Shown: piece by piece, positions 781 to 64,000 of the stretch | Position numbering within the stretch: the stretch's first letter is position 1 | Layout of the letters: the number at the start of each line of letters is the position of its first letter | DNA from: a virus | Direction: 5' to 3' (one strand) | UHGV virus genome: UHGV-1373625 | Length of the DNA: 64,000 bases | The notes under the pieces: generated by a model | The model's input: only the letters and a program-made list of their open reading frames with translations | The model's database searches: none | What the model was told of the DNA's origin: nothing | Translations under genes and position numbers: made by a program

Positions 781-1107
781 TTACATTTTTTTGAACATGG
801 CTTTCAGTTTTTCTACAGTAGAAAGGTACGGATTTTCTTCATTATCAACCTGAATGCTTTCTTCTTCCGGGGTAAGCTCCTCAAGAAGAGATCTTAACTC
901 CGAGCGAATAAGCTTTTCGCAATTTCGCATTGCGGTCCCTTTAGTTGCGAGCCCTGAGATTGAATAAAACGTTCTACCAAATGCGGTAAACCCCCAACCA
1001 CCCGTACTGACCTTAAAAACCATTGCGTCGATTTTTATACTACTTTTCGTGTAAAGATAATATTTTTCCTGCTCACACGTAGATACGTCAATCCAACGAT
1101 AATCCAT
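781..1107 (-). CDS. hypothetical protein
   Basis: ORF of 108 aa. A GAGGAGG RBS lies upstream on the minus strand. Confidence 0.35.
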   Translation of the reverse strand: MDYRWIDVSTCEQEKYYLYTKSSIKIDAMVFKVSTGGWGFTAFGRTFYSISGLATKGTAMRNCEKLIRSELRSLLEELTPEEESIQVDNEENPYLSTVEKLKAMFKKM

Positions 1108-1132: not shown

Positions 1133-1161
1133 ATACTATTTCACGAAGAAGTTTTTGTCAA
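1133..1161 (-). promoter_or_regulatory. sigma70-like promoter for the leftward early genes (TTGACA-N17-TAGTAT on the minus strand)
   Basis: The reverse complement of 1133-1161 reads TTGACA, then a 17-nt spacer, then TAGTAT. It sits in the divergent intergenic region. The same hexamers recur at 57543-57571. Confidence 0.45.
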
Positions 1162-1227: not shown

Positions 1228-2829
1228 ATGAGGTTGAGATATAACGGAAAACTTTTTCAAATACGGGCACATACACAGGAAGAACGAAGCGCATTTAGCA
1301 AAATGAAACACGTAACATATAATAAGGAAGAAGACTGGTTCGAGACAAAGCTATTCAGGGTTGCGAAGGAATTTATAGAAGTTTCACATGATTACAGAAC
1401 CAGAAGCATCCTTGAGAGCTTTTCAGAAAAATGGAATCTCTCTTGGGCAACGGCTCCGACGAAAGGATTTTCCGTGCCAGCTAATGAAGGTTTGCACTAT
1501 TTAGAGTATCAATTGGCTGGCATAGAGTACATGATGAGGAACCCCAGAGTCTTACTTGCTGACGAACCGGGAACTGGTAAAACCATTCAGATTGCTGGAT
1601 ACTTGAATTGTCTCCCTGAAATTAGGAAGGTCCTGATCATATGTCCATCATCCCTCCGGTTGAATTGGAAACGGGAATTGGATAAGTGGCTTGTCGATAA
1701 GTCCCGGAAAGTAACCTTGGACCCTAAAGATGATGAAGCTTTTGCGCATATCGTAAGCTTTTCGAGTGTATGGAGGCCGAACGTATTTCCTTTTCTCGAC
1801 AAGAGAAAATATGATGTTGTGGCTATTGACGAAGCCCATAACTGCAAGAATGACGAAGCGAAAAGGACTATTCAGTCGCTTCATCTTGCAAAAAAAGCAT
1901 TTCGGAAAGTCTTGATGACTGGAACTCCTTTGGTGAATAGGCCCATAGAATTATTCCCGCTTCTGAACTGTCTTGACGAAAAAAGATGGCCTAATAAATT
2001 CGCGTTTGCATTCGAGTATTGTTCCGCACATTATGAAGATATATACATATATGATAAGCAAAAAGGACGTGCGGTAAAAAAATCCGTACTCAATATGAGT
2101 GGAGCTAGCAATCTTCCATCCTTATCTGAGAAGCTCCGTGGGTCAATGATGATCCGAAGGTTGAAATCAGATGTACTTCCGCAGCTCCCCAAGAAAAGAA
2201 GACAGCTTATTGAAATACCTTTGGAAACAAAAGATTGTAAGGCCGCTATCAAGGAAGAAGCCAAACGGTGGGCCGAATTATGTGATCTTTATGGATACGA
2301 AGAATGCGTGCGTCAGATGGAATTTGGCGACGGAGTTGCGTTTACCGAGATGGCTGCGAAGCGTAAAGAAGTCGCGTTGAGTAAAATCCCATTTTGTGTA
2401 GAATATTTAAAAGATTTGCTTGAGGGGGTTGACAAAGTCGTCGTTTTCGCGCATCATAGGGCCGTTGTTGATTTACTAACCGACGAGCTTAAAGAGTACA
2501 ATCCCGTAAAAGTTGTAGGAGGAATGTCGGACAAACAAAAGCAGGAAAGTGTTGATTCATTTCAAGAAAATGAAAATGTGCATCTTTTTATCGGAAATAT
2601 CCAAGCTGCTGGTGTCGGATACACCTTGACAAAAAGTTCAATAGTGGTATTTGTAGAATTGGCATTTGTGCCCGGACTTATGAGTCAAGCTGAGGATCGT
2701 TGTGTACGAATCGGGGCTACAGCGGATTATGTGCTTGTTCAGCATTTGGTCCTAGAAAAATCCCTTGACAAAGACCTTTGTTCCATGCTTATTTATAAAC
2801 AGGAAATTGCAGATAAAATTTTAAATTAA
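1228..2829 (+). CDS. SNF2/RAD54-family helicase
   Basis: Motifs LADEPGTGKT (Walker A), DEAHNCKN (DExH) and LMTGTPLVNRP are present, with a C-terminal helicase domain. The ORF opens at 1216. ATG 1228 follows a GGAGGG RBS. Confidence 0.85.
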   Translation: MRLRYNGKLFQIRAHTQEERSAFSKMKHVTYNKEEDWFETKLFRVAKEFIEVSHDYRTRSILESFSEKWNLSWATAPTKGFSVPANEGLHYLEYQLAGIEYMMRNPRVLLADEPGTGKTIQIAGYLNCLPEIRKVLIICPSSLRLNWKRELDKWLVDKSRKVTLDPKDDEAFAHIVSFSSVWRPNVFPFLDKRKYDVVAIDEAHNCKNDEAKRTIQSLHLAKKAFRKVLMTGTPLVNRPIELFPLLNCLDEKRWPNKFAFAFEYCSAHYEDIYIYDKQKGRAVKKSVLNMSGASNLPSLSEKLRGSMMIRRLKSDVLPQLPKKRRQLIEIPLETKDCKAAIKEEAKRWAELCDLYGYEECVRQMEFGDGVAFTEMAAKRKEVALSKIPFCVEYLKDLLEGVDKVVVFAHHRAVVDLLTDELKEYNPVKVVGGMSDKQKQESVDSFQENENVHLFIGNIQAAGVGYTLTKSSIVVFVELAFVPGLMSQAEDRCVRIGATADYVLVQHLVLEKSLDKDLCSMLIYKQEIADKILN

Positions 2830-6718: not shown

Positions 6719-6747
6719 TTGACACGGAAAGCGTAATTTAATAGGTT
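6719..6747 (+). promoter_or_regulatory. candidate promoter TTGACA-N17-TAGGTT
   Basis: TTGACA lies at 6719-6724, followed by a 17-nt spacer and TAGGTT. It sits upstream of the 6776 gene. Confidence 0.3.
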
Positions 6748-8090: not shown

Positions 8091-9452
8091 ATGATGAAAT
8101 CCGTAATTGACTTTGAAACAAGATCCCCTGTAGATATTAAAACTTGCGGAGCTTACGCATATGCTGCGCACCCTGATACTGAGGTGATGATGCTTGCCGT
8201 CCGTATATGTGGACAGGAGGCTCGCGTATGGGTAGCTCCGGCATATAGGCATTTTCTTGATACTGAATTGAGTGACGATGAATTGCAGGATATTATTAAT
8301 AATTGTGAAGAGATTGCAGCACATAACGCCCCTTTCGAAAGAGCCATTTGGAAATTCAAGATGGAGCCTCTCTGGTTTAAGCCATTGCCATTAGAGAAAA
8401 TTCGATGCACGATGTCTCAGGCCCTTATGTGCAACCTCCCCCGTAAACTGGAACAAGCGGTAAAGGTTTGGCGAAAAGACGCCCCTCAGAAGGATAATGA
8501 AGGGCATAAGCTGATGATGAAAATGTCAAAGCCTAGGAAGTTCCGTAAAGCCGAGCTTTCCGCGTTTCCTGATCCCGAAAAGGCTAAGGCTACTCAAGAA
8601 TACGTCTATGCTGTACTTTCAAAAGGTGGCATTCCTACCATTAAAAACTACCATCAATATATTGTCTATCCTTGCGACGAGCCAATGTTTAAACGATATG
8701 TTGAATATTGTCGACAGGACGTGGTTGCGGAAGAAGTTCTTTTTACGGAGCTTCCTCCTATCCCTGAGCGGGAGCTTAAAGTGTGGCGGCTTGACCAGAC
8801 AATCAATGACCGTGGAGTAGGAATTGACAGGTTTCATGCGGTCAAAATTATGGATATGGTTAATAAAGTAGAAGATATTTTGACGGAGGAAGCTTCTGAG
8901 ATTACGTATGGGGCGGTATCGACTATGAAGTCTTCTAAGGCTATTATTGAATGGCTACAATCTCGTGGGGTTGATACTGATTCGGCAAGCAAGCAAGCTA
9001 TCTCCGACCTTCTTGAACGGACTGATCTCCCCTCTGATGTTCGTAGATTCCTTGAGATTCGCCAGACTATTGCCATGTCTTCTACGGCAAAATATCAGAC
9101 CATGCTCTGTACTTCATGCTATGATGGCAGGGCGCATGGAACGATGATTTATCATGGCGCTTCAACTGGAAGGTTTTGTCTTTCGGAAGGGTCTATGGTC
9201 AAAGTTTGTGATGATGCAGGTTGTGTTTATGAAAAGCCTATCGAAAATGTTGACAGATCAGAAAAAGTATGGGATGGTTCGGATTGGGTCTATCACGATG
9301 GTGTAGTTTTTTCAGGAGATAAACCCGTTATTGAATGGGATGGGATTGTTGCTACAGAAGAACATAAAGTTTTTATTTCAGATACAGAAAAAATGTCTCT
9401 TTTAGAAGCCAAGGAAAGAGAACTTAAACTCTGGCAAGGAGAGAAACCCTAA
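8091..9452 (+). CDS. DNA polymerase I (family A), N-terminal fragment: 3'-5' exo domain plus start of the pol domain, ending in an intein N-part
   Basis: IDFETRS is the Exo I motif. The extein ends ...GASTGRF at 9176. CLSEGSMVKV... begins intein block A, and DGIVATEEHKVF is block B. The stop is at 9450-9452. Confidence 0.75.
   Translation: MMKSVIDFETRSPVDIKTCGAYAYAAHPDTEVMMLAVRICGQEARVWVAPAYRHFLDTELSDDELQDIINNCEEIAAHNAPFERAIWKFKMEPLWFKPLPLEKIRCTMSQALMCNLPRKLEQAVKVWRKDAPQKDNEGHKLMMKMSKPRKFRKAELSAFPDPEKAKATQEYVYAVLSKGGIPTIKNYHQYIVYPCDEPMFKRYVEYCRQDVVAEEVLFTELPPIPERELKVWRLDQTINDRGVGIDRFHAVKIMDMVNKVEDILTEEASEITYGAVSTMKSSKAIIEWLQSRGVDTDSASKQAISDLLERTDLPSDVRRFLEIRQTIAMSSTAKYQTMLCTSCYDGRAHGTMIYHGASTGRFCLSEGSMVKVCDDAGCVYEKPIENVDRSEKVWDGSDWVYHDGVVFSGDKPVIEWDGIVATEEHKVFISDTEKMSLLEAKERELKLWQGEKP
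9177..9449 (+). mobile_element. intein N-terminal part (IntN, 91 aa) of an apparently split intein in PolA
   Basis: The Cys1 block A is CLSEGSMVKVCDD. The TxxH block B is VATEEHKVF. The part ends at the ORF stop. Confidence 0.6.
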
Positions 9453-9523
9453 TGCGTACTTATGACATACTTAATGCTGGCCCTAAAAATAGATTTATGG
9501 CGAATGGTAAAATCGTAAGTAAT
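9452..9523 (+). mobile_element. intein C-terminal part (IntC, 24 aa) opening the PolA C-fragment
   Basis: MRTYDILNAGPKNRFMANGKIVSN followed by S resembles the DnaE IntC ...VYDIGVERDHNFALKNGFIASN followed by C. It has its own AAGGAGAG RBS at 9435-9442. Confidence 0.55.
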
Positions 9524-11368
9524 TCAGGTGCTCTTATTCAACCGCAAAATTTGACTAGACCTTCAACAAATAATATGAATATCCCCGAAGGTTCCAAGCC
9601 TTTGGATAATTATGATATCAGTGAAATGGATATCGAACTTGCAGCTAGCGGGAATTTAGATCTTATCCAGCAGTATTGGAAAGACCCTAAAGTCCTTGCC
9701 TCCGATTGCCTTCGCGCAATGATTCACGCTAGAAAAGGATACGATTTTATCTGTGCCGACTATAGTGGGATTGAAGCCCGAGCATTGGCATGTCTCGCTG
9801 GCGAAGAGTATGTTCTTCAAGGTTTTAGGGACGGCCTTGACCCATATAAAGTTGCAGCTACGACTATCTATGGGGTGAAATATGAAGATGTGGATAAGAA
9901 GCAGCGTCAAGTAGGTAAGACGGCTACGTTGGCTTGCTTCTCTGCGGATACAATGGTTTATACGAGCTATGGAATAAAAAAAATCGTCGACATAACTAAA
10001 GATGATTATGTATGGGATGGAGAAAACTGGTGTTTGACAGATGGAGCATATTGCCAAGGTATTAAAGAAATCGTTAATTTTTTGGGAGTAGAATCTACAC
10101 CTGATCAAAAATGGTTGATGGATGAAAATATTTGGATAGACTCCGATGCAGCTATTGAATTGTGTAAATGGCTAGGAGATGGGAAAGTTTATTCTAGCGA
10201 GCAATATCAAATATTCTCTAGTTGGGTTAGTTATCAAATCTCAAAAGTTCAAGATAAAATTATTTATAGTTTGAAGAAATACCCAGTAAAAGTAACTATA
10301 GCTGAAATGGGAATTGAAGTAATTCTTTCCGATTTTGACGAAGATGACTTTAATGTATCCTTTGTTGATTCTAAAAGTAGAAAAGGTGTTTATGTATACT
10401 TGGGTGAAAGCTTAAGGAACACGAGTCTTGAAGATAAAGTTAAATATGTATGCTCCATTATCGTCTTTTTAGCTACGATTTTTTCTAAGTATTCAACAGC
10501 TCAAAATTATCTGAATATTAAAGTGAGTGAAGCCGTTATTAAGGACTATAATAAAATAAATATGGCGATTTTAAAGTTTATCAAAAAAGATGATAGCGAT
10601 GAAATTATTCTTACTGGGAGCATTTTATCTAATAGAGATGGTTATACTAAAATAGAAAAAGTTTATGATCTTTTGAATTGTGGAGATAAAAGCAGGTTTA
10701 TGATACATACATCCTGCGGTCCACGCATTGTGCATAACTGTGGATATGGAGGTGGTTATGGCGCGTTCCTTCGCTTTGGGGCTGATAGAATGGGCATTGA
10801 TGAAGAGGAAGGAAAGAAGATTATTGCTGCATGGAGAGACGGGCACCCAATGACGGTTAAGCTTTGGCACAAACTCGTTGAAGCTGCTGTCATGGCTATG
10901 ACGAATAAGGGCGGAATTTATTCTTATCGTGGAGTATCATTCCAATACTATAAGAGATTCCTCCTTATGAAGCTCCCTAGTGGCAGGTTCCTCTTCTACT
11001 TCGAGCCTAAACTTGAAGACGTGGAGATGGCATGGTCTACGCCAGAAAAGCCAGCGTTCAAGAAGCTTGTTACGGCGATGACCTTGACGCCAGAAAAACA
11101 ATTTGTGAGAAGGCCGCTTAACCATCTCATACTTTCAGAAAATGTTACACAAGCTTTCTGTAGAGATCTGATGGTGAATGCGATGTTCAATCTCGAAGAA
11201 GCCAATTATCCGGTAGTGTTTCATGTTCATGATGAAATCATTGCGGAAGTTCCTAAAGGGTTTGGGTCTGTCGAGGAATTTGAAAATATCATGTGCAAGC
11301 TTCCTCAATGGGCAGAAGGTCTGCCAGTAAAGGCCGAAGGATGGAGGGGAGAATTTTATAGGAAATAA
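9452..11368 (+). CDS. DNA polymerase I (family A), C-terminal fragment: IntC, pol domain, and a second embedded intein
   Basis: Motif A is DFICADYSGIEARALA. Motif B, KQRQVGKTATLA...GYGGGYGAF, is interrupted by an intein. Motif C is VFHVHDEIIAEV. Confidence 0.75.
   Translation: MRTYDILNAGPKNRFMANGKIVSNSGALIQPQNLTRPSTNNMNIPEGSKPLDNYDISEMDIELAASGNLDLIQQYWKDPKVLASDCLRAMIHARKGYDFICADYSGIEARALACLAGEEYVLQGFRDGLDPYKVAATTIYGVKYEDVDKKQRQVGKTATLACFSADTMVYTSYGIKKIVDITKDDYVWDGENWCLTDGAYCQGIKEIVNFLGVESTPDQKWLMDENIWIDSDAAIELCKWLGDGKVYSSEQYQIFSSWVSYQISKVQDKIIYSLKKYPVKVTIAEMGIEVILSDFDEDDFNVSFVDSKSRKGVYVYLGESLRNTSLEDKVKYVCSIIVFLATIFSKYSTAQNYLNIKVSEAVIKDYNKINMAILKFIKKDDSDEIILTGSILSNRDGYTKIEKVYDLLNCGDKSRFMIHTSCGPRIVHNCGYGGGYGAFLRFGADRMGIDEEEGKKIIAAWRDGHPMTVKLWHKLVEAAVMAMTNKGGIYSYRGVSFQYYKRFLLMKLPSGRFLFYFEPKLEDVEMAWSTPEKPAFKKLVTAMTLTPEKQFVRRPLNHLILSENVTQAFCRDLMVNAMFNLEEANYPVVFHVHDEIIAEVPKGFGSVEEFENIMCKLPQWAEGLPVKAEGWRGEFYRK
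9935..10738 (+). mobile_element. contiguous intein (268 aa) inserted in PolA motif B, with a central putative endonuclease or linker domain
   Basis: It starts CFSADTMVYT (block A) and ends ...RIVHN followed by C. The flanking extein LA + CGYGGGYGAF restores motif B. A degenerate LGDG motif lies in the middle. Confidence 0.6.
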
Positions 11369-11457: not shown

Positions 11458-12579
11458 ATGTTTGAAGTAAAAGGATCAGTAAGTACAGCTAAGGTTTTCA
11501 CAGATTATGTGGAGCCGACCGCGTTATCTCAGATTATTGAATTATGTAATCAGGAGTTCACCGAAGGAAGTAAAATCCGTATTATGCCTGATGTACATGC
11601 TGGTGCTGGATGCGTTATTGGAACGACGATGACCATTGAAAATAAGAAAATCGTTCCTAATCTTGTCGGTGTTGATATCGGTTGTGGGCTACTGTCCTGT
11701 GAATTTACTTTGGGGGATAAGCTCAACAATAGCTTTTTTGAAGAAGTTGATCGAATTATTCGAAAGTATATTCCCGCAGGATTTAATATTCGTAACGACA
11801 AGCATGAATTGGTTAGCGCCATCAATTTGAATACGCTTGCATGTTGTAATGAAGTTAATATCGCTCGTGCGGAGCACAGTATTGGGACTTTGGGGGGAGG
11901 GAATCATTTTATTGAAATAGGGGAATCCGATAATTTCGATGGTACTTTTTCTTATTTCCTTACCGTACATTCTGGTTCTAGAAATATTGGAAAAGAAGTA
12001 GCTACTTATTATCAAAATGTCGCTATTAAGGAATGTCCGGGCACCCCCAAACATCTAGCGTATCTTTCAGGGGAGATGTTCGATGAATATATGTATGATA
12101 TGGAAATCATGAAATATTATGCCTCTTTGAATCGTGAGGCGATCATTAACGATATCACGCTACACATTGGGATTAAGAAAGACGATGTCTATGAAACCGT
12201 TCATAACTATATAGAACGTATTGACAATGATGTGTTCATGCTGCGCAAGGGAGCCGTTTCCGCTAAAAAAGAACAGGCTCTTATGATCCCTTTGAATATG
12301 AGAGACGGTATTATTTTTGGTTTTGGTAAAGGACTTGAAGACTGGAACTATTCCGCACCTCATGGAGCTGGACGTAGACTAAGCAGAGGTGAAGCCAAGC
12401 GCAGCCTTGATATGAATGATTTTAAAAATGAAATGGAAGGTATTTATTCTTCTTGCGTAAATATTTCTACTCTTGATGAAAGTCCTATGGCATACAAGGA
12501 TGGCTCAGAGATTCGTAATAATCTTCAATCGGTGGAAACCTTGTTTACTATTAAGCCAGTATATAACTTTAAAGCATAA
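11458..12579 (+). CDS. rtcB: RtcB-family RNA ligase
   Basis: Motifs MPDVHAGAG, GGGNHFIE, HSGSRNIG and APHGAGRR are present. This is a short, 373-aa RtcB form. Confidence 0.8.
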   Translation: MFEVKGSVSTAKVFTDYVEPTALSQIIELCNQEFTEGSKIRIMPDVHAGAGCVIGTTMTIENKKIVPNLVGVDIGCGLLSCEFTLGDKLNNSFFEEVDRIIRKYIPAGFNIRNDKHELVSAINLNTLACCNEVNIARAEHSIGTLGGGNHFIEIGESDNFDGTFSYFLTVHSGSRNIGKEVATYYQNVAIKECPGTPKHLAYLSGEMFDEYMYDMEIMKYYASLNREAIINDITLHIGIKKDDVYETVHNYIERIDNDVFMLRKGAVSAKKEQALMIPLNMRDGIIFGFGKGLEDWNYSAPHGAGRRLSRGEAKRSLDMNDFKNEMEGIYSSCVNISTLDESPMAYKDGSEIRNNLQSVETLFTIKPVYNFKA

Positions 12580-13244: not shown

Positions 13245-14000
13245 ATGTATGGATATGTTTATTGTACAACAAATTTAATAACGGGTTGTATGTATATAGG
13301 TAGACACGCATCTAGTGTATTCGATGAAAAGTATTTTGGCTCGGGAAAGATACTAAAACGAGCTATAAAAAAATATGGAGAGAATAATTTTTCTATAGAG
13401 ATACTTTGCGAAGCGGAGTCTTATGAAGATTTAGCTGAGAAAGAACGATATTATATAGCATTATCAGATGCGGTAAACCGTAAAGATTTTTATAATATAG
13501 GCAGGGGAGGAGAGGGGTTCCCTTCTGGAGAAAATCACCCAAATTATGGTAAAAAAGGCAAGGACGCTTTTGGGTGGGGGAAAGTGCATACTGATAAATT
13601 TAAAGAATATATGTCGAGAATACGAAAAGGTATGAAGTTTTCTTTTGACCATAAGCAAAAATTATCTCAAAAGAAATTAGGGGATGCTACATTAAATAAA
13701 GGAAGGCGTGTATCAGAAGATACAAAGGCCAAATTATCTCAAATAAACAAAGATGCTCAATTAAATAGGAAAATGGGTATTAAGCAAAATGGTAGAATAA
13801 GGACTTTTCATGAGTTCTTACACGGCTTTAAAGTTGCTATTTATTTTACAGATGGGTCGATTAAGACTTTTGATAGCATGAAAGCCTGTACGAGATACAC
13901 TTCATTGAAACATAGGGTGCGCCACATAAATACTATAAAAAGGATTATTAATGGAGAGACATTACCTCCAGAAGGGGTGAGAAAAATATGCTATATTTAA
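13245..14000 (+). CDS. GIY-YIG homing endonuclease with C-terminal NUMOD3-like repeats (free-standing HEG)
   Basis: The core is YGYVYCTTNLITGCMYIGRH (GIY-YIG). Repeated HP.YGKKGKD / KQKLSQKKLG / SEDTKAKLSQ motifs follow. Confidence 0.8.
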   Translation: MYGYVYCTTNLITGCMYIGRHASSVFDEKYFGSGKILKRAIKKYGENNFSIEILCEAESYEDLAEKERYYIALSDAVNRKDFYNIGRGGEGFPSGENHPNYGKKGKDAFGWGKVHTDKFKEYMSRIRKGMKFSFDHKQKLSQKKLGDATLNKGRRVSEDTKAKLSQINKDAQLNRKMGIKQNGRIRTFHEFLHGFKVAIYFTDGSIKTFDSMKACTRYTSLKHRVRHINTIKRIINGETLPPEGVRKICYI

Positions 14001-49848: not shown

Positions 49849-49877
49849 TTGACAAAAATATAGAATGAAGATATACT
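49849..49877 (+). promoter_or_regulatory. promoter TTGACA-N17-TATACT upstream of the terminase gene
   Basis: The -35 TTGACA is at 49849-49854. The spacer is 17 nt. The -10 TATACT is at 49872-49877. Confidence 0.55.
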
Positions 49878-49927
49878 TCAAAGATATATTAAAAATATCA
49901 TTTTATCAGATAAGGAGAGGAGTTTCA

Positions 49928-52063
49928 ATGGCTAATGTAAAACCCATAACGACTAAACAATTCAATCAAAACAAAAAGCATATCACCGACATCCATTGGT
50001 ACGCCGACAATGTTCTTAACGGAAATATTCAGGTCTGTAAATACATTAGAGCATTGTGCAAAAACTTTAAAGATGATCTTGCTAATAAAGACCTTGATTT
50101 TTATTTCTCGGAAGAATCGGCTATTCGCGTAATTTGTTTTATCGAAAATATGGTGCATGTCAAGGGCGTTCTTACTGGAAAAAGATTAAAGCTTGAGCCT
50201 TGGCAGAAATTCTTCGTTGGAAACATCTTTGGGTGGCTGGATAAGAAAAACAATCTCCGCAGGTACAGGGAGGCCGCCCTTATCGTCCCCCGAAAAGCTG
50301 GCAAGGCTTTAGCTGTAAGCACTCCAATCCCTACTCCCGAGGGTTGGGTCACGATGAATGATTTAAAGCCCGGAGATGCCGTTTATGGGCCAAATTCGGA
50401 TATACGAAGAGTAGTAGCCGCAACGGAAGTGATGTACGGAAGGCCGTGCTATGAAATTTCTTTCAGTGATGGTTCCGCTATTACTGCCGACGCGGAGCAT
50501 CTTTGGAAAATCGACGGTAAGAATATCGTAACCTCCGAAAGTCTGCATCAAATCTTGTCTCATAATGGCAGAAAGCCCAAAGTGTGGGTAGCTCCGAATA
50601 TAAAAAGGCATGATGGCGAGACGGTGCCTGTGGTAAGATTTATTACGGATTGTAAACCTGTGGAAAGCGTTCCGGTGAAGTGTATACAGGTTGACAATGA
50701 AGATGGAATGTATCTTTGCGGGAAAACGTATATTCCGACTCACAATAGCAGCCTTGCAGCGGCTATTGGTCACTATATGCTTGTTGGTGAAAAAGAAAAA
50801 GGTTCGGAAGTATATTGTGGTGCGACCACAGAAGTTCAAGCTTTTGTCCTGTTCAACATCGCTCGGGATATGATTGTTGCCAATAAAGCATTTGAAGAAG
50901 CATTCGGACTGACTTATACTAAAGAATCGATTCATGCACAATCAACGCTTTCTACGTTCAAACCTATTATCGGAAGCCCGAAGGATGGTAGTAACCCTCA
51001 GTGCGCTATTGTTGACGAGTATCACGAGCATCCTTCCGACGCGCTATATGACTCGTTGAAGCTCGGTATGGGCGCAAGACAGCATCCTCTCTTGCTTGTT
51101 ACTACCACCGCAGGGACGAATATTAAAGGCCCGTGCTATCGTTATGTGGAACAAGGCAGGAAGGTTGTGTTGGGGAAAGCAAAGAACGACAGATTATTTT
51201 ACATGGAGTTTACCATCGACGATACGGATAAATGGGAAGATTTTTCATGTTGGATTAAGGCCAGCCCGAACTTTGGAGTTTCCGTATCCGAAGAGTTCCT
51301 GCGCGAGCAATACGAAATAGCCAAATCATCACAGTACAAGCGTTCATCCATTCTTACCAAAATGCTGAATGTTTGGAACAATGAATCCGTGGGATGGATT
51401 GACTTTCCTAAATGGCTTAATTGTACTGACAGAAATCTAAAGATGGAAGACTTTGAAGGCGAGAAATGCTGGATTGGCATTGACCTAGCCTCTAAGGTCG
51501 ACTTAACAGCAATGGTCGCCGTCTTTAAGCGCGATGGTAAGTTCTATGTTTTCGGAAAATACTATCTTCCTTCCGATACTGTAGATAGACCGGAGAACGA
51601 CCATTATCGGGGCTGGCGAGATGAAGGCTGGCTGACCGTAACGCAAGGGGCTCGAACAGACTATCATGCGCTGGAGGAGGATCTGCAAAATTGGGCTGAT
51701 AAATATGCGATTCAGGAAGTAGCATATGACCCTAGAGAAGCCGAATATCTTATGCAGAATATCCGGGAATGGGCGGCATTTGAATGTATTGAATTCACAC
51801 AGTCGTCCGCTACTTTCTCCGAGCCGATGAAAGAGTTTGAAGCTGCGTATCTTAATGGGGAGCTTTTCCACCAGAATGACCCTATCCTCAACTTCGCTGC
51901 TGGTAATGTAGTCCTGAAATCCACAACGAACAAACTTGTTTACATGACCAAAACGGCGAATGAAAATAAAATCGACCCGATGGTCGCTATGATTATGGCA
52001 ATCGCTAGAGCAATGGAAGATAAAGAAGAAGAGGCGTCAGATCCGTTTATTATGTTCCTTTAG
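49928..52063 (+). CDS. terminase large subunit with a mini-intein inserted in the Walker A P-loop
   Basis: The extein PRKAGK + SSLAAAIGHYML reconstitutes the TerL Walker A (PRxxGKS). The ATPase and nuclease domains lie downstream. ATG 49928 follows GGAGAGGAG. The ORF opens at 49865. Confidence 0.8.
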   Translation: MANVKPITTKQFNQNKKHITDIHWYADNVLNGNIQVCKYIRALCKNFKDDLANKDLDFYFSEESAIRVICFIENMVHVKGVLTGKRLKLEPWQKFFVGNIFGWLDKKNNLRRYREAALIVPRKAGKALAVSTPIPTPEGWVTMNDLKPGDAVYGPNSDIRRVVAATEVMYGRPCYEISFSDGSAITADAEHLWKIDGKNIVTSESLHQILSHNGRKPKVWVAPNIKRHDGETVPVVRFITDCKPVESVPVKCIQVDNEDGMYLCGKTYIPTHNSSLAAAIGHYMLVGEKEKGSEVYCGATTEVQAFVLFNIARDMIVANKAFEEAFGLTYTKESIHAQSTLSTFKPIIGSPKDGSNPQCAIVDEYHEHPSDALYDSLKLGMGARQHPLLLVTTTAGTNIKGPCYRYVEQGRKVVLGKAKNDRLFYMEFTIDDTDKWEDFSCWIKASPNFGVSVSEEFLREQYEIAKSSQYKRSSILTKMLNVWNNESVGWIDFPKWLNCTDRNLKMEDFEGEKCWIGIDLASKVDLTAMVAVFKRDGKFYVFGKYYLPSDTVDRPENDHYRGWRDEGWLTVTQGARTDYHALEEDLQNWADKYAIQEVAYDPREAEYLMQNIREWAAFECIEFTQSSATFSEPMKEFEAAYLNGELFHQNDPILNFAAGNVVLKSTTNKLVYMTKTANENKIDPMVAMIMAIARAMEDKEEEASDPFIMFL
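50306..50746 (+). mobile_element. mini-intein (147 aa, Ala1 variant) in TerL
   Basis: ALAVSTPIPTPEGWVTMNDLKPGD is block A with Ala at position 1. SAITADAEHLWKI is block B (TxxH). It ends YIPTHN followed by S. Confidence 0.6.
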
Positions 52064-53142: not shown

Positions 53143-53385
53143 TCACTTGCTAGGAGTTTCAATAACAGAAGTATGAGAAGCGCGGAGAATATTAAAATGG
53201 ACACCATCACGATACTCCTTCGATGGAAATACAAAGCGTTCTGTTAGATTCCTCACTTTTGTTTCTACTGATATATCCAATACACAATCGTCGTCAAGGG
53301 CATCACTTATAAGAATGATACGATCCAAATCAATAGATATGGTTCTTTCAAGCTCTGGTCCATATTTAAAATTAAAAAGCTTCAT
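53143..53385 (-). CDS. hypothetical protein
   Basis: 80 aa. The overlapping ORF 53040-53234 is an alternative. Confidence 0.25.
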   Translation of the reverse strand: MKLFNFKYGPELERTISIDLDRIILISDALDDDCVLDISVETKVRNLTERFVFPSKEYRDGVHFNILRASHTSVIETPSK

Positions 53386-53753
53386 GCTGATCCCTTCCCT
53401 TTCCGATAGTCGGAGGTTATTTTTGAGTGGCAGGATTTACATAACGCCATAAGGTTATTTTCGTCAAGTATTTTTCCGCCCTCGTTAATAGGAACGATAT
53501 GGTGGACTTCATTAGCTGCGTTAGGAAACGGAGTGGTTTTCTCGCATTCCTCGCAGAAAGGGTGCTTTCGCAGATAACGCTCACGAACTTTCTTCCACCT
53601 TGAATCGTACCCTCTTTCCGCCGGAGTTCCACGCTTCATGTCATATCGTTTGTCTGACGATATTCTGTGCTTGGCGCAATCTTCGCAGTACCCCGAAGGG
53701 TGATCCGTTGGCTTTTTACAATGTTTGCATGGTTTTTTTGGTCTAGGGGGCAT
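53382..53753 (-). CDS. HNH endonuclease
   Basis: CKHCKK...CEDC, then VHHIVPINEGG...NLMALCKSCH (the HNH motif). Confidence 0.75.
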   Translation of the reverse strand: MPPRPKKPCKHCKKPTDHPSGYCEDCAKHRISSDKRYDMKRGTPAERGYDSRWKKVRERYLRKHPFCEECEKTTPFPNAANEVHHIVPINEGGKILDENNLMALCKSCHSKITSDYRKGKGSA

Positions 53754-55835: not shown

Positions 55836-56273
55836 TTACTTATTTTTATAGAAAACCGCGTCGTTTTTATCCCCGCTAGGCTCATGATACGTAGCGAATG
55901 CAATACCATCCTTTCTTCCGAATCTCTGGAACATCTCTTTCGCGGTAGTAACCATTCTGAGCTTGGCTACAGAATTAGCCGAGTGCACCCTAACGATTTG
56001 AAGATTGAGGAGCTTACCCTCAGAAATCAATTTTTCGATTTCATTCAGGACTTGATAACCTTCACTAAGATACCCCGAGCCTCCAAGGTCATTATCAAGA
56101 CTAATGCCGTGGGGATTCACTTCTTCAATAATCCTCATAAACTGCTTTCCGCTACGAACAGTGTAGACTTCAAAATCTTCATCGTCACCTTCATCCACAT
56201 CTTGGAAGAAATTATATGAAGGCGTTCTTTCGTCATCCAGATAAATCCATGTTTTCATTATTCTAATCCTCAC
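55836..56273 (-). CDS. receiver-like alpha/beta domain protein (possible cyclic-phosphate-processing CPR-like domain)
   Basis: MKTWIYLDDER, then ISLDNDLG, then IVRVHSANSVAK. The pattern resembles a small receiver-like family seen in phages and RNA-repair contexts. The assignment is tentative. Confidence 0.3.
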   Translation of the reverse strand: MRIRIMKTWIYLDDERTPSYNFFQDVDEGDDEDFEVYTVRSGKQFMRIIEEVNPHGISLDNDLGGSGYLSEGYQVLNEIEKLISEGKLLNLQIVRVHSANSVAKLRMVTTAKEMFQRFGRKDGIAFATYHEPSGDKNDAVFYKNK

Positions 56274-57542: not shown

Positions 57543-57571
57543 ATACTATGAAATTATCTGAGAGGTGTCAA
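57543..57571 (-). promoter_or_regulatory. sigma70-like promoter TTGACA-N17-TAGTAT on the minus strand
   Basis: The reverse complement of 57543-57571 reads TTGACA cctctcagataatttca TAGTAT. It lies upstream of the 57524 gene start. The hexamers match those at 1133-1161. Confidence 0.5.
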
Positions 57572-58734: not shown

Positions 58735-58841
58735 GTTGATCTCTCCTTGTTGATTAAAATGTTTAGATTAAAATGGTTTGATAGAATATTTCCGTGTTCC
58801 CTTTCTCTTGAAACGCATACTATGAAATTTTCGTTACCTTG

Positions 58842-59354
58842 TCAACATTTTTTTTTAAAATTATTTTCAATGCTCCATTCAATCCAATTCATCCTATCTT
58901 TATGCGCGGTTCCATTGGGCTTCGCTACAGGCCAGTAGTAACCCTTTGGATAGCAATCCAACGAGTCCTTGCTAATGCCGCCAAAAAACTTTTTCGTGTG
59001 ATAGTAGTCAAAGTCCTTACGCAAGAGATTAACCCTTTGCGACAGGTGGAAAAGATTATCCCCGAGCCAGAAAGGTTTTTTGGTTGACTCAAAACTGTAT
59101 AATCTGACACCATTCAACCATTCACGAGTCGCATGTAACTTTCCGAACCGCATATAGTATTCGGAGCACAAAGTCGCAATATATTTTCTTAAATCGTATT
59201 CATACCCCTCCCACATAAGACAAGCTGGATGGTTCTTTGTGGGCACACGACCAGAAAAAATCTGATAGGCTTCCACGATTTGCTTATTCAGCCTCTTGTT
59301 GTCGAGAATCTTAGCCGTTTCAAGAAAGTCAGGAGTGGGAAGAAACGTCTGCAT
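58842..59354 (-). CDS. pyrimidine-dimer DNA glycosylase (DenV/Pyr_excise)-like protein (putative)
   Basis: The N-terminus MQTFLPTPDFLETAKILDNKRLNKQIVEAYQI resembles the bacterial DenV-family M.LWSLHP.YLD.KGL...WRE pattern. The call is tentative. Confidence 0.3.
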   Translation of the reverse strand: MQTFLPTPDFLETAKILDNKRLNKQIVEAYQIFSGRVPTKNHPACLMWEGYEYDLRKYIATLCSEYYMRFGKLHATREWLNGVRLYSFESTKKPFWLGDNLFHLSQRVNLLRKDFDYYHTKKFFGGISKDSLDCYPKGYYWPVAKPNGTAHKDRMNWIEWSIENNFKKKC

Positions 59355-61551: not shown

Positions 61552-61881
61552 TTATTTAAAAATATACACGATAAAGATTGTAAACAAGCTTACCGCACCA
61601 AACCCGGCTAGAGAAGCAACTACTCCATATGCAAATGATTTGGGAAACTTTTCAACAAAACGCTTTTTCATGACATACATTCTTTGGGAAATCTCTTTTG
61701 AGGGAACTTCATATTCACGCCCGCACATTGTGCATTTCCAAATAAAAACAATAAAAACCGTCTCCCCATCTCCTCTTAGTTCGTTCCCATCCTTTTGGAA
61801 AACCGTATGTGAACCACCACAAACAGGGCAGTCCCTTCCAAAATCATATGCTGGCACTGAGATACGAATATCGTTTTTCAT
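61552..61881 (-). CDS. Zn-ribbon protein with a C-terminal TM helix, paralog of 61906-62238
   Basis: Shared layout: PAY...D.CP.CG...DGETVF...C..C...Y.VP.K..SQ, then a TM helix. Confidence 0.4.
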   Translation of the reverse strand: MKNDIRISVPAYDFGRDCPVCGGSHTVFQKDGNELRGDGETVFIVFIWKCTMCGREYEVPSKEISQRMYVMKKRFVEKFPKSFAYGVVASLAGFGAVSLFTIFIVYIFK

Positions 61882-61905: not shown

Positions 61906-62238
61906 TTACTTAAAGAGTGATTTGAAAAGCAGGAGTCCCAAACAACCTGACCCAAATACACCTATAAAGACCAATGCGGAGCATATCAAAGTTTTGGCTA
62001 AATCCTCCCAAAAAATTTTAATAAAAATATATTTTAGATGTTCGGTCTTTTGGGAAACCTTTTTCCCCGGAACTACGTAATTATAAGAGCATCTCCGGCA
62101 TCTCCAAACAAACACTGTTTCTCCATCTTCCGTTGTTTTTATATCTGGTGTATAACCATTAAAAGGCCAGTCCCCACAGATAGGGCATTTATCGGGAGCC
62201 TTATATGCTGGCCTATCCACAATATCGCTGTATTTCAT
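61906..62238 (-). CDS. Zn-ribbon protein with a C-terminal TM helix, paralog of 61552-61881
   Basis: See the paralog entry. Confidence 0.4.
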   Translation of the reverse strand: MKYSDIVDRPAYKAPDKCPICGDWPFNGYTPDIKTTEDGETVFVWRCRRCSYNYVVPGKKVSQKTEHLKYIFIKIFWEDLAKTLICSALVFIGVFGSGCLGLLLFKSLFK

Positions 62239-62361
62239 TTTAAGATACCTCCTCTTTTTTATCGTTTCGTCCCAATAATCGTAAAGAAGAAAATCACGCT
62301 AAGAATTGCTATAACGTAAATAAAATTATCTGGAATTATGTACAGGTGCTCCTTAGCTTTT

Positions 62362-62556
62362 TTAGTAAAAAACAAATAGTATCGTACTTACTATGTTAAT
62401 CACCGTGACCGCGATTGCCAATATACAAAAGTCTTCTTTGTCTCCATAAAACATTAAATCATTATCAGATGGTGGGGGGATTATTTCCATCTTTAAAAGT
62501 TTCTTTTTCCTCGTGAATTTATGAAAAGGTGTTTTATGTTTCACGCCAGTCTCCAC
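62362..62556 (-). CDS. small membrane protein
   Basis: 64 aa. Confidence 0.25.
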   Translation of the reverse strand: METGVKHKTPFHKFTRKKKLLKMEIIPPPSDNDLMFYGDKEDFCILAIAVTVINIVSTILFVFY

Positions 62557-63020
62557 TTTTCCCGTTCATCTTTCCATATCTTTCCACCAAGAATGCCCGG
62601 AGGGACAATCCATGTCTTCGCCTTCTCGGGATCATAGGCTTTACGGTAATCCCTAATGTGAATCTGCATTTGATCTTCGCTCAAAGCGCCAGCTTCCTTT
62701 ACAAAATACTGATTCCTCCGATATGGCATCTGGTATCTGTATATGAAAACGTCTCTTCCGCCATTCGTCCAATACTTTTTCATATTTTCAAAATTGTATG
62801 AAAACTTGACTTTTTCTTCAAGCAGGACAGCAGGTTCGAATTCGCCTTTCTTGATATCGAATATTTCTATCCTTCCCGCCTTAGCTCTGATCCTGCGGTT
62901 AGTTACAAGCGCCCTTACGAAACCAAGAATTTTGTTGGAATCGACACCAATGATAACACCTGTAATGTTATGCTTGTGAAGATATCCTATGAAATGACGA
63001 GTTTCCAAGTTATCTTTCAT
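62541..63020 (-). CDS. hypothetical protein
   Basis: 159 aa. No family was recognised. Confidence 0.35.
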   Translation of the reverse strand: MKDNLETRHFIGYLHKHNITGVIIGVDSNKILGFVRALVTNRRIRAKAGRIEIFDIKKGEFEPAVLLEEKVKFSYNFENMKKYWTNGGRDVFIYRYQMPYRRNQYFVKEAGALSEDQMQIHIRDYRKAYDPEKAKTWIVPPGILGGKIWKDEREKWRLA

Positions 63021-63036
63021 ATCGATATACCCTCCC

Positions 63037-63324
63037 TTATTTAGAATATTTCCATGTATCGTCCAACTTTACAGAGAAAGCTACCGCGCCATTAAAACTT
63101 GAAAGTTTAACAAAACCCACATTTTCCCCAAATTCATTACGATTAAATTTACCATTAATGAATATTATTCTTCCGTCTATATGAATGCTCGCTGTTATTT
63201 CACTTTCATTAGCCGGGAGTACATCCCTGAATCTCGTTTCATCATGTAGGGGCTTATCTTTGGGTTTCGTTTTAACTGGGCTCATATATTCGCAATAAGT
63301 ATGAGTATAAGTAGTCCGTACCAT
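63037..63324 (-). CDS. hypothetical protein (first gene of the leftward block)
   Basis: 95 aa. An AAGGAGA RBS lies on the minus strand. Confidence 0.35.
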   Translation of the reverse strand: MVRTTYTHTYCEYMSPVKTKPKDKPLHDETRFRDVLPANESEITASIHIDGRIIFINGKFNRNEFGENVGFVKLSSFNGAVAFSVKLDDTWKYSK

Positions 63325-63348
63325 TTAATTTCTCCTTGCATTAAAAAG

Positions 63349-63377
63349 ATGCTACCCTATTTCGAATTTTTATGCAA
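63349..63377 (-). promoter_or_regulatory. candidate leftward promoter TTGCAT-N17-TAGCAT
   Basis: The reverse complement of 63349-63377. It lies immediately downstream of the iteron array relative to minus-strand transcription. Confidence 0.3.
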
Positions 63378-63412
63378 CAAAATTTTTTTCTATTTTATTA
63401 AAATTCTTTAGC

Positions 63413-63597
63413 TTGAAAATGTTAGCTCTGAAAGTATTCCCCACCTGTCTCGAAAATGTTAGCTCAAAAGTCAGTCCCCACCTCGCTCAAAAACTTTAGC
63501 TCGGCTTGACCTCCCCACCTCGTTTGAAAATGTTAGCTCGGCTTGCACTCCCCACCTGTCCTGAAAATGTTAGCTTGGATCGAATCCCCCACCTTTT
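63413..63597. repeat. five tandem 37-bp iteron-like direct repeats
   Basis: The units start at 63413, 63450, 63487, 63524 and 63561. The consensus is tYGAAAATGTTAGCTC - N10 - TCCCCACCT - N3. Conserved flanks surround a variable 10-bp core. Confidence 0.7.
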
Positions 63598-63621
63598 CCT
63601 AGAGCGCACGCGACCCGGATT

Positions 63622-63690
63622 GATTGATTGTGCAATCAATGTATGCTGATTGACCGAACAATCAAGACTGGTTGATTGTACGCGCAACCA
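63622..63690. repeat. cluster of inverted repeats built on TGATTG/CAATCA half-sites in a locally GC-rich patch
   Basis: ATTGATTG tg CAATCAAT at 63623-63640. TGATTG...CAATCA at 63647-63664. GGTTG...CAACC at 63670-63690. Confidence 0.45.
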
Positions 63691-63823
63691 ATGCCGCCCT
63701 ATGGGTACAGAGCAAGAGAGCGTCAAGACTTGCAAGAGCATGACGCCGCAAGGCGAGGCGTGACCATGTAAAGACGCGAGCTTATACACTAGACGCCGCC
63801 CATGCTTTTCTTTTCGTGATAGT

Positions 63824-63975
63824 GTTATGTTTCATTGCCTATCCCTTTGTTCCTTCATAAATCGATTATGCGGCCTTTTTGTTTCTTTCATGGGTTATCC
63901 TTTACGTTTCAATAAATCGCTTCTTAAATCGGCATTTGTGAGCGTCTTTTTTCTTTCTCATGGATACGGGCAAGC
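63824..63975. repeat. two to three imperfect direct repeats of about 55 bp
   Basis: The units begin near 63824, 63877 and 63947. They share tgtttc-ttcatgg / tatcc(t)tt / ttcaataaatcg...cggc. Confidence 0.35.
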
Positions 63976-64000
63976 TGTACCGTGCTCAAGCTGTACCGTG
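63971..64000. repeat. 14-bp direct repeat CAAGCTGTACCGTG x2 at the window edge
   Basis: 63971-63984 and 63987-64000 are identical. The window truncates any continuation. Confidence 0.35.

Follow-up and report, generated by a model that had tools for sequence, protein, structure and literature searches.

The virus genome UHGV-1373625 is analysed here over a stretch of 64,000 nucleotides (the window), which is most of a tailed-phage genome and carries an array of five head-to-tail 37-bp units at positions 63410–63594, read, like the leftward genes, on the minus strand. Each unit contains two short boxes, and purifying selection is restricted to these boxes. The array is constantly linked to a downstream promoter in two paralogous cassettes. 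We tentatively interpret it as an upstream multi-site protein-binding array that acts on an early promoter.

The units start, on the minus strand, at 63594, 63557, 63520, 63483 and 63446, and occupy 63558–63594, 63521–63557, 63484–63520, 63447–63483 and 63410–63446, respectively. Each consists of a first box, (A)GGTGGGG, a stretch of 11 nt, a second box, AGCTAA-NN-T, an A/T-rich tail and a purine-rich linker. A half unit with the second box only, AAGCTAAAGAATTTT, lies at 63400–63414 on the same strand and corresponds in the alignments to a 13+3 nt insertion specific to the window and one relative (L012). Tandem Repeats Finder reports the array at 63415–63579 (period 37, 4.5 copies, score 144) as by far the strongest in the window, and a repeat search returns five copies with start-to-start distances of exactly 37, 37, 37 and 37. 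The bipartite motif AGGTGGGG-N11-AGCTAAC has six matches in the window at three or fewer mismatches, five of which are the array units; shuffled sequences give a mean of 0.73, and none of 100 shuffles reaches six. The array lies far outside chance expectation. The unit motif is not found in the remaining 63.8 kb of the window, and for this reason it does not represent a general promoter class or regulon; a dispersed operator motif is rejected as well.

An earlier inspection of this DNA without database searches (the sequence-only reading) had placed five 37-bp repeats at 63413–63597; the five repeats are real, and their true register differs by 3 nt. The same reading had described conserved flanks around a variable 10-bp core. 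The conserved boxes at 37-bp spacing stand, but the core between them is 9–11 nt long and semi-conserved rather than free (RAYKCRAKCC in many units). Units inside one array are 57–89% identical. The sequence-only reading was also right to deny an organisation of clustered regularly interspaced short palindromic repeats (CRISPR): a 37-bp period with just 9–11 semi-conserved nt between boxes lacks the identical repeats and unique spacers of ~25–40 nt of such arrays, and a CRISPR array is rejected.

Relatives were collected as contigs of 52–90 kb; the sources were IMG/VR and, for human-gut metagenome assemblies, ENA and Logan. The array is present in all relatives found, about 17 contigs from one lineage of ~86-kb human-gut siphophages; absence from all relatives, which the sequence-only reading had named as counter-evidence, is thus not what is seen. 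The array of L012 (OLFZ01000128.1) is identical to that of the window. Across eight orthologous arrays in this intergenic region (IGR-1), none of the 70 columns in the boxes (A)GGTGGGG and AGCTAA..T, 11 bp apart, is variable, against 52 of 115 other columns (Fisher p = 6e-14). The two cassettes together provide 32 distinct units, and every one of them keeps the pattern GGGG-N11-RGCTAA; the spacing GGGG-N11-AGCTAA within a unit does not change, whereas that from unit to unit is 37, 43/44 or 47 bp. The units are position-specific orthologues between relatives and are not homogenised, the core of unit 2, for example, being GTGCAAGCC almost everywhere. This positional orthology, together with the limited identity inside one array, indicates that the array is old and maintained site by site, unlike the neighbouring minisatellite. 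Judged from the alignments, selection confined to the boxes is the signature of sequence-specific recognition, and the earlier suggestion of a binding-type site is upheld to the extent that the pattern is one of protein recognition. As a separate observation, GATC occurs in the window at 0.51 of its Markov expectation, the lowest value among the 16 four-base palindromes, and one or two GATC are still kept in array units 1 and 4 of most relatives.

The array is followed, on the minus strand, by a 73-bp spacer of 79% A+T (63340–63412), which leads to the first gene and is conserved in relatives. This spacer contains a candidate early promoter, P-down, TTGCAT-N17-TAGCAT at 63349–63377, of the class TTGACA-N17-TAGNNT. 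P-down (TTGCAT-N17-TAGNNT, sigma-A-like) keeps its position in every relative, and the paralogous cassette has a promoter at the corresponding place, which agrees with the earlier statement that the repeats sit just upstream of a candidate leftward promoter. The class TTG(A/C)(A/C)(A/T)-N17-TAGNNT has five sites in the window, where 1.67 are expected, namely 1133–1161 (-), 6719–6747 (+), 57543–57571 (-), 58817–58845 (-) and P-down itself, and each of the five is located inside an intergenic gap or at its edge and points to the next gene. The Shine-Dalgarno (SD) sequence AAGGAGA at 63331–63337 (-) belongs to the first leftward gene, which encodes 95 aa (63037–63324, -). It is followed by a conserved ORFan gene of 159 aa (62541–63020, -), whose family is the first gene past the array in most relatives. 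The 159-aa protein was considered as a toxin, initiator or regulator and rejected in each role, with no family match in any search; its AF2 model has a pLDDT of 38 and was not used.

The array is not a unique site, and the same unit type recurs in a shorter paralogous cassette, IGR-2, located ~5.5 kb upstream of IGR-1 in relatives; the window ends before that place. IGR-2 lies at 2200–2735 (+) in L005, 9878–10346 (-) in L004 and ~790–1025 (+) in L007. The L004 and L005 copies match IGR-1 in the order of parts, have 2.5 units and are 75–80% identical to IGR-1 in segments. Of the IGR-2 of L007, 3.5 units are left, which directly follow the stop codon of the gene upstream; after them come an A tract and a strong promoter, TTGACA-17-TAGATT, that matches the consensus at 10 of 12 positions. 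The IGR-2 promoter is embedded in an 11-bp inverted repeat (GTGTGAGCCCG..CGGGCTCACAC). Relative to the promoter, the units of the two cassettes all point the same way, and the order of units, A/T tract, TTGxxx-N17-TAGNNT, and SD with gene is the same in IGR-1, in the IGR-2 of L004 and L005, and in the truncated IGR-2 of L007. In L013, the mini-ORF segment of IGR-1 is of the IGR-2 type, which suggests exchange between the two cassettes.

The invariant boxes at a fixed distance, the tolerant spacer between them, the single orientation, and the constant linkage to an A/T tract and promoter point to a protein-site array that works at the DNA level. The ligand is most likely one sequence-specific protein that binds double-stranded DNA, and this protein is probably phage-encoded. 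Its output would be promoter control rather than replication. In the model we propose, the protein would contact each unit at two fixed boxes, GGTGGGG and AGCTAA..T, which a tolerant spacer keeps 11 bp apart. Repeated five times at intervals of 37 bp (3.5 helical turns), the units would allow a cooperative complex of several proteins to be loaded along about 185 bp of DNA. The loaded complex would be positioned directly upstream of the A/T tract and the sigma-A-type early promoter, where it could switch the downstream transcription unit on or off in the manner of an upstream multi-site operator or upstream activating sequence, and it may also insulate this transcription unit from the one upstream.

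Several observations weigh against this model. The copy of P-down in the window is weak, with 7 of 12 positions matching the consensus, and no array accompanies the remaining four members of its class in the window. Between the last AGCTAA and the -35 element (TTGCAT) there are 27, 44 or 21 nt depending on the clade, which is awkward for a phased activator, and the array does not overlap the -35 and -10 elements as a simple repressor site would. A DNA-binding domain (helix-turn-helix (HTH), sigma or Rep) was found in none of about 37 leftward and neighbouring open reading frames (ORFs). Moreover, conserved hairpins with G.U variants upstream of the array indicate that the region is probably transcribed from upstream, and a role at the RNA level is conceivable.

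Operators and early-region cassettes of other phages offer partial parallels to such an element. The sites of the phi105 repressor, the P2 C protein and the L5 stoperators are 13–17 bp long and overlap or flank a promoter or are dispersed over the genome. Like the units described here, phage repressor operators are asymmetric direct repeats with an orientation fixed to transcription, near early promoters, but the present array has five long bipartite units at -45 to -230 and occurs at two loci only. The PeSL cassettes of T4-like phages, about 100 bp long, also combine stem-loops with a promoter, exist in more than one copy in the early region and show signs of copy exchange; they contain no bipartite repeat array, whereas the cassette described here has one and is known in two copies.

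The sequence-only reading had offered an origin of replication or a multi-site operator. The protein-site pattern and the promoter linkage bear out the general idea, but nothing specific to an origin was found in the skew, in DnaA boxes or in a candidate initiator, and an iteron-type origin is possible but doubtful. According to this explanation, the five units would be the sites of an initiator that melts the A/T-rich stretch beside them, with transcriptional activation from the nearby promoter; the second array would be a second origin or control locus, as in SPP1 oriL/oriR or P4 ori/crr. Several tandem direct repeats with invariant recognition bases are indeed present, though with a bipartite unit and a period of 37 bp, and these iteron-like repeats adjoin the 73-bp, 79% A+T stretch, which is the same stretch that serves as promoter and UP region. 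They sit in the largest non-coding region of the window, with palindromes, hairpins and a minisatellite, and a function that does not depend on promoter geometry would agree with the variable distance from array to promoter. The layout of iterons, promoter and conserved small gene mirrors the replicons of P1, F and pSC101, and in P1 oriR the incC locus has five 19-bp iterons upstream of repA.

The resemblance to plasmid and phage iteron clusters (lambda ori, P1 oriR incC, F ori2, pSC101) extends to about five direct repeats in one orientation, recognition bases under selection, and an adjoining A/T-rich stretch with the promoter of the next gene. However, iterons are 17–22 bp long with a spacing of about two helical turns, whereas the present unit has 37 bp, 3.5 turns and two separated boxes; there is no Rep-family gene and no DnaA box, and there are two cassettes per genome. 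Neither of the adjacent proteins, of 95 and 159 aa, gives a match to Rep, winged-helix or HTH domains; the 159-aa protein belongs to an ORFan family, and its only distant homologue, in L055, has no array upstream of the gene. (In L055, a 19-bp tandem repeat of 3.2 copies lies at 2003–2062, after the homologue and at the contig end.) No DnaA-box-like sequence (TTATCCACA at one mismatch or fewer) occurs within 62222–64000. The check by GC skew that the sequence-only reading had suggested gives no turning point at 63.5 kb: the cumulative skew is extreme near 1–2 kb and near 52 kb and shows a monotonic fall across 63.5 kb, which is weak evidence because the skew follows the direction of transcription here. 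The replication genes, at 1.2–15 kb, lie away from the array. The presence of two arrays in one genome also counts against an origin, although in SPP1 and P4 two site clusters can serve one replication system. In SPP1, the AB boxes of oriL and oriR are bound by G38P, and in P4 the binder of ori and crr is alpha, with one cluster in or beside the gene of the binder. SPP1 and P4 share with the present lineage the same repeat type at two separate places in one phage genome, but here both clusters precede promoters and no binder was found.

The remaining question is whether the array functions as RNA or as coding sequence. A coding repeat is rejected: the 37-nt period is not a multiple of three and breaks the frame at each unit, and every unit contains a TAA, so the array is non-coding. 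ORF 63496–63789, which had been called spurious in the sequence-only reading, is indeed not a real gene, as its reading frame and C-terminus differ among relatives. Rfam gives no match for the array at the gathering threshold or at E ≤ 1. The minimum free energy (MFE) of the array is worse than that of shuffled sequences on both strands (z +1.65 and +2.65), and the RNAalifold covariation term is positive (+1.52); with these three results, a structured RNA is rejected. A literature search for similar phage arrays returned nothing relevant, and a relaxed two-unit pattern searched in IMG/VR matched only within this lineage.

It is unlikely, in our judgement, that the array is a leftward-transcribed repetitive non-coding RNA that serves as a type III antitoxin-like decoy (pseudo-ToxI) for an abortive-infection RNase of the ToxN/AbiQ/CptN type in the host; a repeated protein-binding leader element of the nut/put type, or an SD-like stabiliser, is a variant of the same unlikely reading at the RNA level. 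In the toxIN family, repeats are 31–62 nt long and present in 1.9–5.6 copies, and type III loci are common in gut Clostridia (PMC3401426). The present array of 5 x 37 nt, with 2.5–3.5 units in IGR-2, falls inside this range of size and copy number. In phage PhiTE, an intergenic pseudo-ToxI locus expands from 1.5 to 4.5–5.5 repeats, with escape from ToxIN (PMC3475682). The ToxI unit was verified on pECA1039 (5.5 x 36 nt), and the genuine ToxI array, too, is a poorer folder than its shuffled versions (z +3.08, compared with z +1.65 for the array here), so poor folding is compatible with an RNA. ToxI and the PhiTE locus further resemble the present array in being non-coding repeats of ~36–37 nt in about five copies, co-oriented with transcription, with the PhiTE locus likewise intergenic in a phage. 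The leader upstream of the array shows covariation of the RNA type, the three nearly identical units in the IGR-2 of L007 imply recent amplification, and the phage encodes RtcB and a protein with a cyclic-phosphate domain, an RNA-repair theme.

On the other side, the units are heterogeneous, while the repeats of an antitoxin are as a rule almost identical. No terminator-like site was found behind the array, where an A/T-rich promoter region lies instead, whereas a hairpin terminator is seen in the genuine ToxIN locus. The 159-aa protein has no match to ToxN, AbiQ, CptN or TenpN in Pfam, PADLOC, NCBIfam or PDB, and hhalign against ToxN gives a probability of 0.15%; such a protein is not required for a pure decoy. 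The unit shares AGGTG and AGCTA with ToxI, but the alignment score is at or below that of shuffles, which is the level of chance. No covariation supports a common hairpin or pseudoknot, although the tools used do not predict pseudoknots. Among 185,579 bacterial species-representative genomes, no tandem array with the same boxes was found, though the host may be absent from this set; the scan returned 22 matches, none of them in Firmicutes, against ~20 expected by chance according to a rough calculation from the database size. That a decoy RNA would be transcribed early, cut to units of ~37 nt and neutralise an abortive-infection endoribonuclease of a gut Firmicute host is likewise improbable. 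With such a decoy, the heterogeneous cores could cover several toxin variants, and the RtcB and cyclic-phosphate genes would be part of the same counter-defence theme.

Two further explanations carry even less weight. It is very unlikely that the units are five tandem promoters of a special class, with GGTGGGG as the -35/-30 element and TAAnnT (unit positions 23–28) as the -10 element, used by host RNA polymerase with a phage sigma factor or appropriator. The units are bipartite and their spacer is strict, as such promoters would have it; the invariant pattern T, A, (A), n, n, T matches the conservation profile of a -10 hexamer, there are purines 6–8 nt downstream, and the SPO1 gp28 promoters also have a purine-rich -35 element (AGGAGA). 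However, the motif occurs nowhere else in the 64 kb and so serves no regulon as a promoter class, no sigma-like protein was found in the leftward ORFs searched, promoters 37 bp apart would exclude one another, and a normal sigma-A promoter follows the array anyway. A partition centromere or a terminase recognition (pac/cos) site is about as unlikely: tandem repeats of 11–43 bp do form centromeres (R1 parC, 10 x 11 bp flanking the par promoter; F sopC, 12 x 43 bp), with long-period units of which a short part is the protein site and which double as promoter-proximal control DNA, and contigs of several relatives end in this intergenic region, but no partition ATPase/GTPase or adaptor gene was found (no ParA, ParM, TubZ or ParB-like match in the leftward ORFs tested or the upstream loci), the phage looks lytic from its genes, 11 kb separate the terminase genes from the array, and the contigs break in perfect minisatellites (16/17-bp and 48-bp repeats) rather than in the 37-bp array. 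These breaks differ between contigs and are therefore assembly artefacts, and a physical genome end at IGR-1 is rejected.

The array is one part of a composite non-coding cassette of ~0.9 kb, and the stretch 63325–64000 is the largest non-coding stretch in the window. The order of the parts of this cassette comes from an alignment of nine distinct relatives. At its upstream end, a covarying terminator hairpin after the GP88 gene is followed by a conserved block with CTATAAAGG. The putative promoter P-up in the CTATAAAGG block, whose -10 element TATAAA has no T at position 6, fails the scan and is treated as uncertain. The middle of the cassette has a 16-bp minisatellite, two mini-ORFs, a GC-rich hairpin segment, CAATCAA/TTGATTG palindromes and a 17-mer; the downstream end has the five units, the spacer of 79% A+T, the promoter, the SD sequence and the first gene.

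The beginning of the 16-bp minisatellite, (CGGTACAGCTTGAGCA)n, occupies 63971–64000 (-), where the window end cuts it off. It is perfectly homogeneous, with 1 to at least 8 copies across relatives, and many contigs of relatives break in it; besides the window, the observation covers L012, L001–L007, L019, L025 and L027. A different 17-bp unit, GCATGAGCATAGATGCA, occupies this position in L019, L025 and L027, and L023 has no minisatellite at all. Mini-ORF 1 (63832–63891, -) encodes 19 aa, MKETKRPHNRFMKEQRDRQ, has an SD sequence, and is conserved in relatives and also in the paralogous cassette. Mini-ORF 2 (63782–63835, -; 17 aa) overlaps it by ATGA, is likewise kept in relatives and has an in-frame 15-nt indel in L013. 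The two overlapping mini-ORFs may be leader peptides, and a third, at 63902–63961, is probably non-coding, being frameshifted in relatives.

The GC-rich segment at 63685–63781 (-) contains conserved hairpins, such as GCGTCA..TGACGC at 63720–63746. Its RNAalifold covariation term is -2.51, and the pairs 49–65 and 42–96 survive double changes and G.U variants; GCGTCA/TGACGC against GCGTCCA/TGGACGC is an example of compensatory change. Two of these hairpins share the bases GGCGTC, so alternative structures are possible. The CAATCAA/TTGATTG palindrome region (63617–63684, -) is highly plastic in length among relatives; it is deleted in L003 and has 48-bp tandem duplications in the clade of L006, L008 and L022. 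Directly upstream of unit 1 is a conserved 17-nt block, GGGTCGCGTGCGCTCTA (63600–63616, -), which is kept in all relatives and, as GGTTGCGTGCGCTCTAA, in the paralogous cassette. Within this 17-mer is CGCTCTAA, which we take to resemble the boxA of lambda nut sites (CGCTCTTA).

The genome around the cassette is divided into two arms. The rightward arm (1.2–52 kb) encodes an SNF2 helicase, a DUF2800 nuclease, an Enc34-type SSB, a split PolA, RtcB, dUTPase, NrdD, a portal protein, the major capsid protein (MCP), a tape-measure protein, a J-like tail protein and the large terminase (TerL), whereas the leftward arm (52.1–63.3 kb) consists of small genes, mostly without known function. A blastn search found no nucleotide match among GenBank phages or PLSDB plasmids, and the nearest GenBank phages are less than 40% identical in TerL and MCP. 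An 85,873-bp contig ends in the IGR-1 minisatellite and restarts ~350 bp further, which indicates a circular genome map of about 86 kb. Where the region is internal to a contig, the genes upstream of IGR-1 are co-directional, the nearest encoding a 240-aa Pfam GP88 protein. The array had been described as upstream of the leftward gene block, but these co-directional genes place it inside a long leftward arm, between two transcription units, and not at the head.

Other genes of the window are recorded for completeness. RtcB RNA ligase is encoded at 11458–12579 (+) and a protein with a cyclic-phosphate-processing receiver domain (cREC_REC) at 55836–56273 (-), a theme of RNA repair that could counter RNA-cutting defences of the host. 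Two adjacent ORFs with inserts that resemble endonucleases (8091–11368, +) make up a split PolA, and the large terminase (49865–52063, +) matches its family in two stretches, perhaps because of an insertion. Free-standing endonuclease genes of the GIY-YIG and HNH types also occur, with loci listed at 13245–14000 (+) and 53382–53753 (-). Two adjacent paralogous early proteins of ~110 aa (61906–62238 and 61552–61881, -) each have a zinc ribbon and a C-terminal hydrophobic helix.

Tandem arrays of protein sites beside promoters or origins are already known as a kind of element, and the array described here is most likely a fairly ordinary phage control element of this kind in a new sequence form. 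What is new is the 37-bp bipartite unit, its sequence, the duplicated composite cassette, and its occurrence in a phage lineage without a cultured member. For uncultivated gut phages, hardly any of the cis-acting control DNA has been annotated. In this lineage of ~86-kb phages without a cultured relative, the array marks the start of an early transcription unit, and it provides a 14-base recognition code, GGTGGGG-N11-AGCTAA..T, that is under purifying selection and can be used as bait for the binding protein. Should the array prove to be an RNA decoy, it would be the second natural case of a phage that mimics an antitoxin, and the first such case from the gut microbiome. Should it prove to be an origin, it would form the replicon core of the lineage, and if it is an operator, it would be the early switch.

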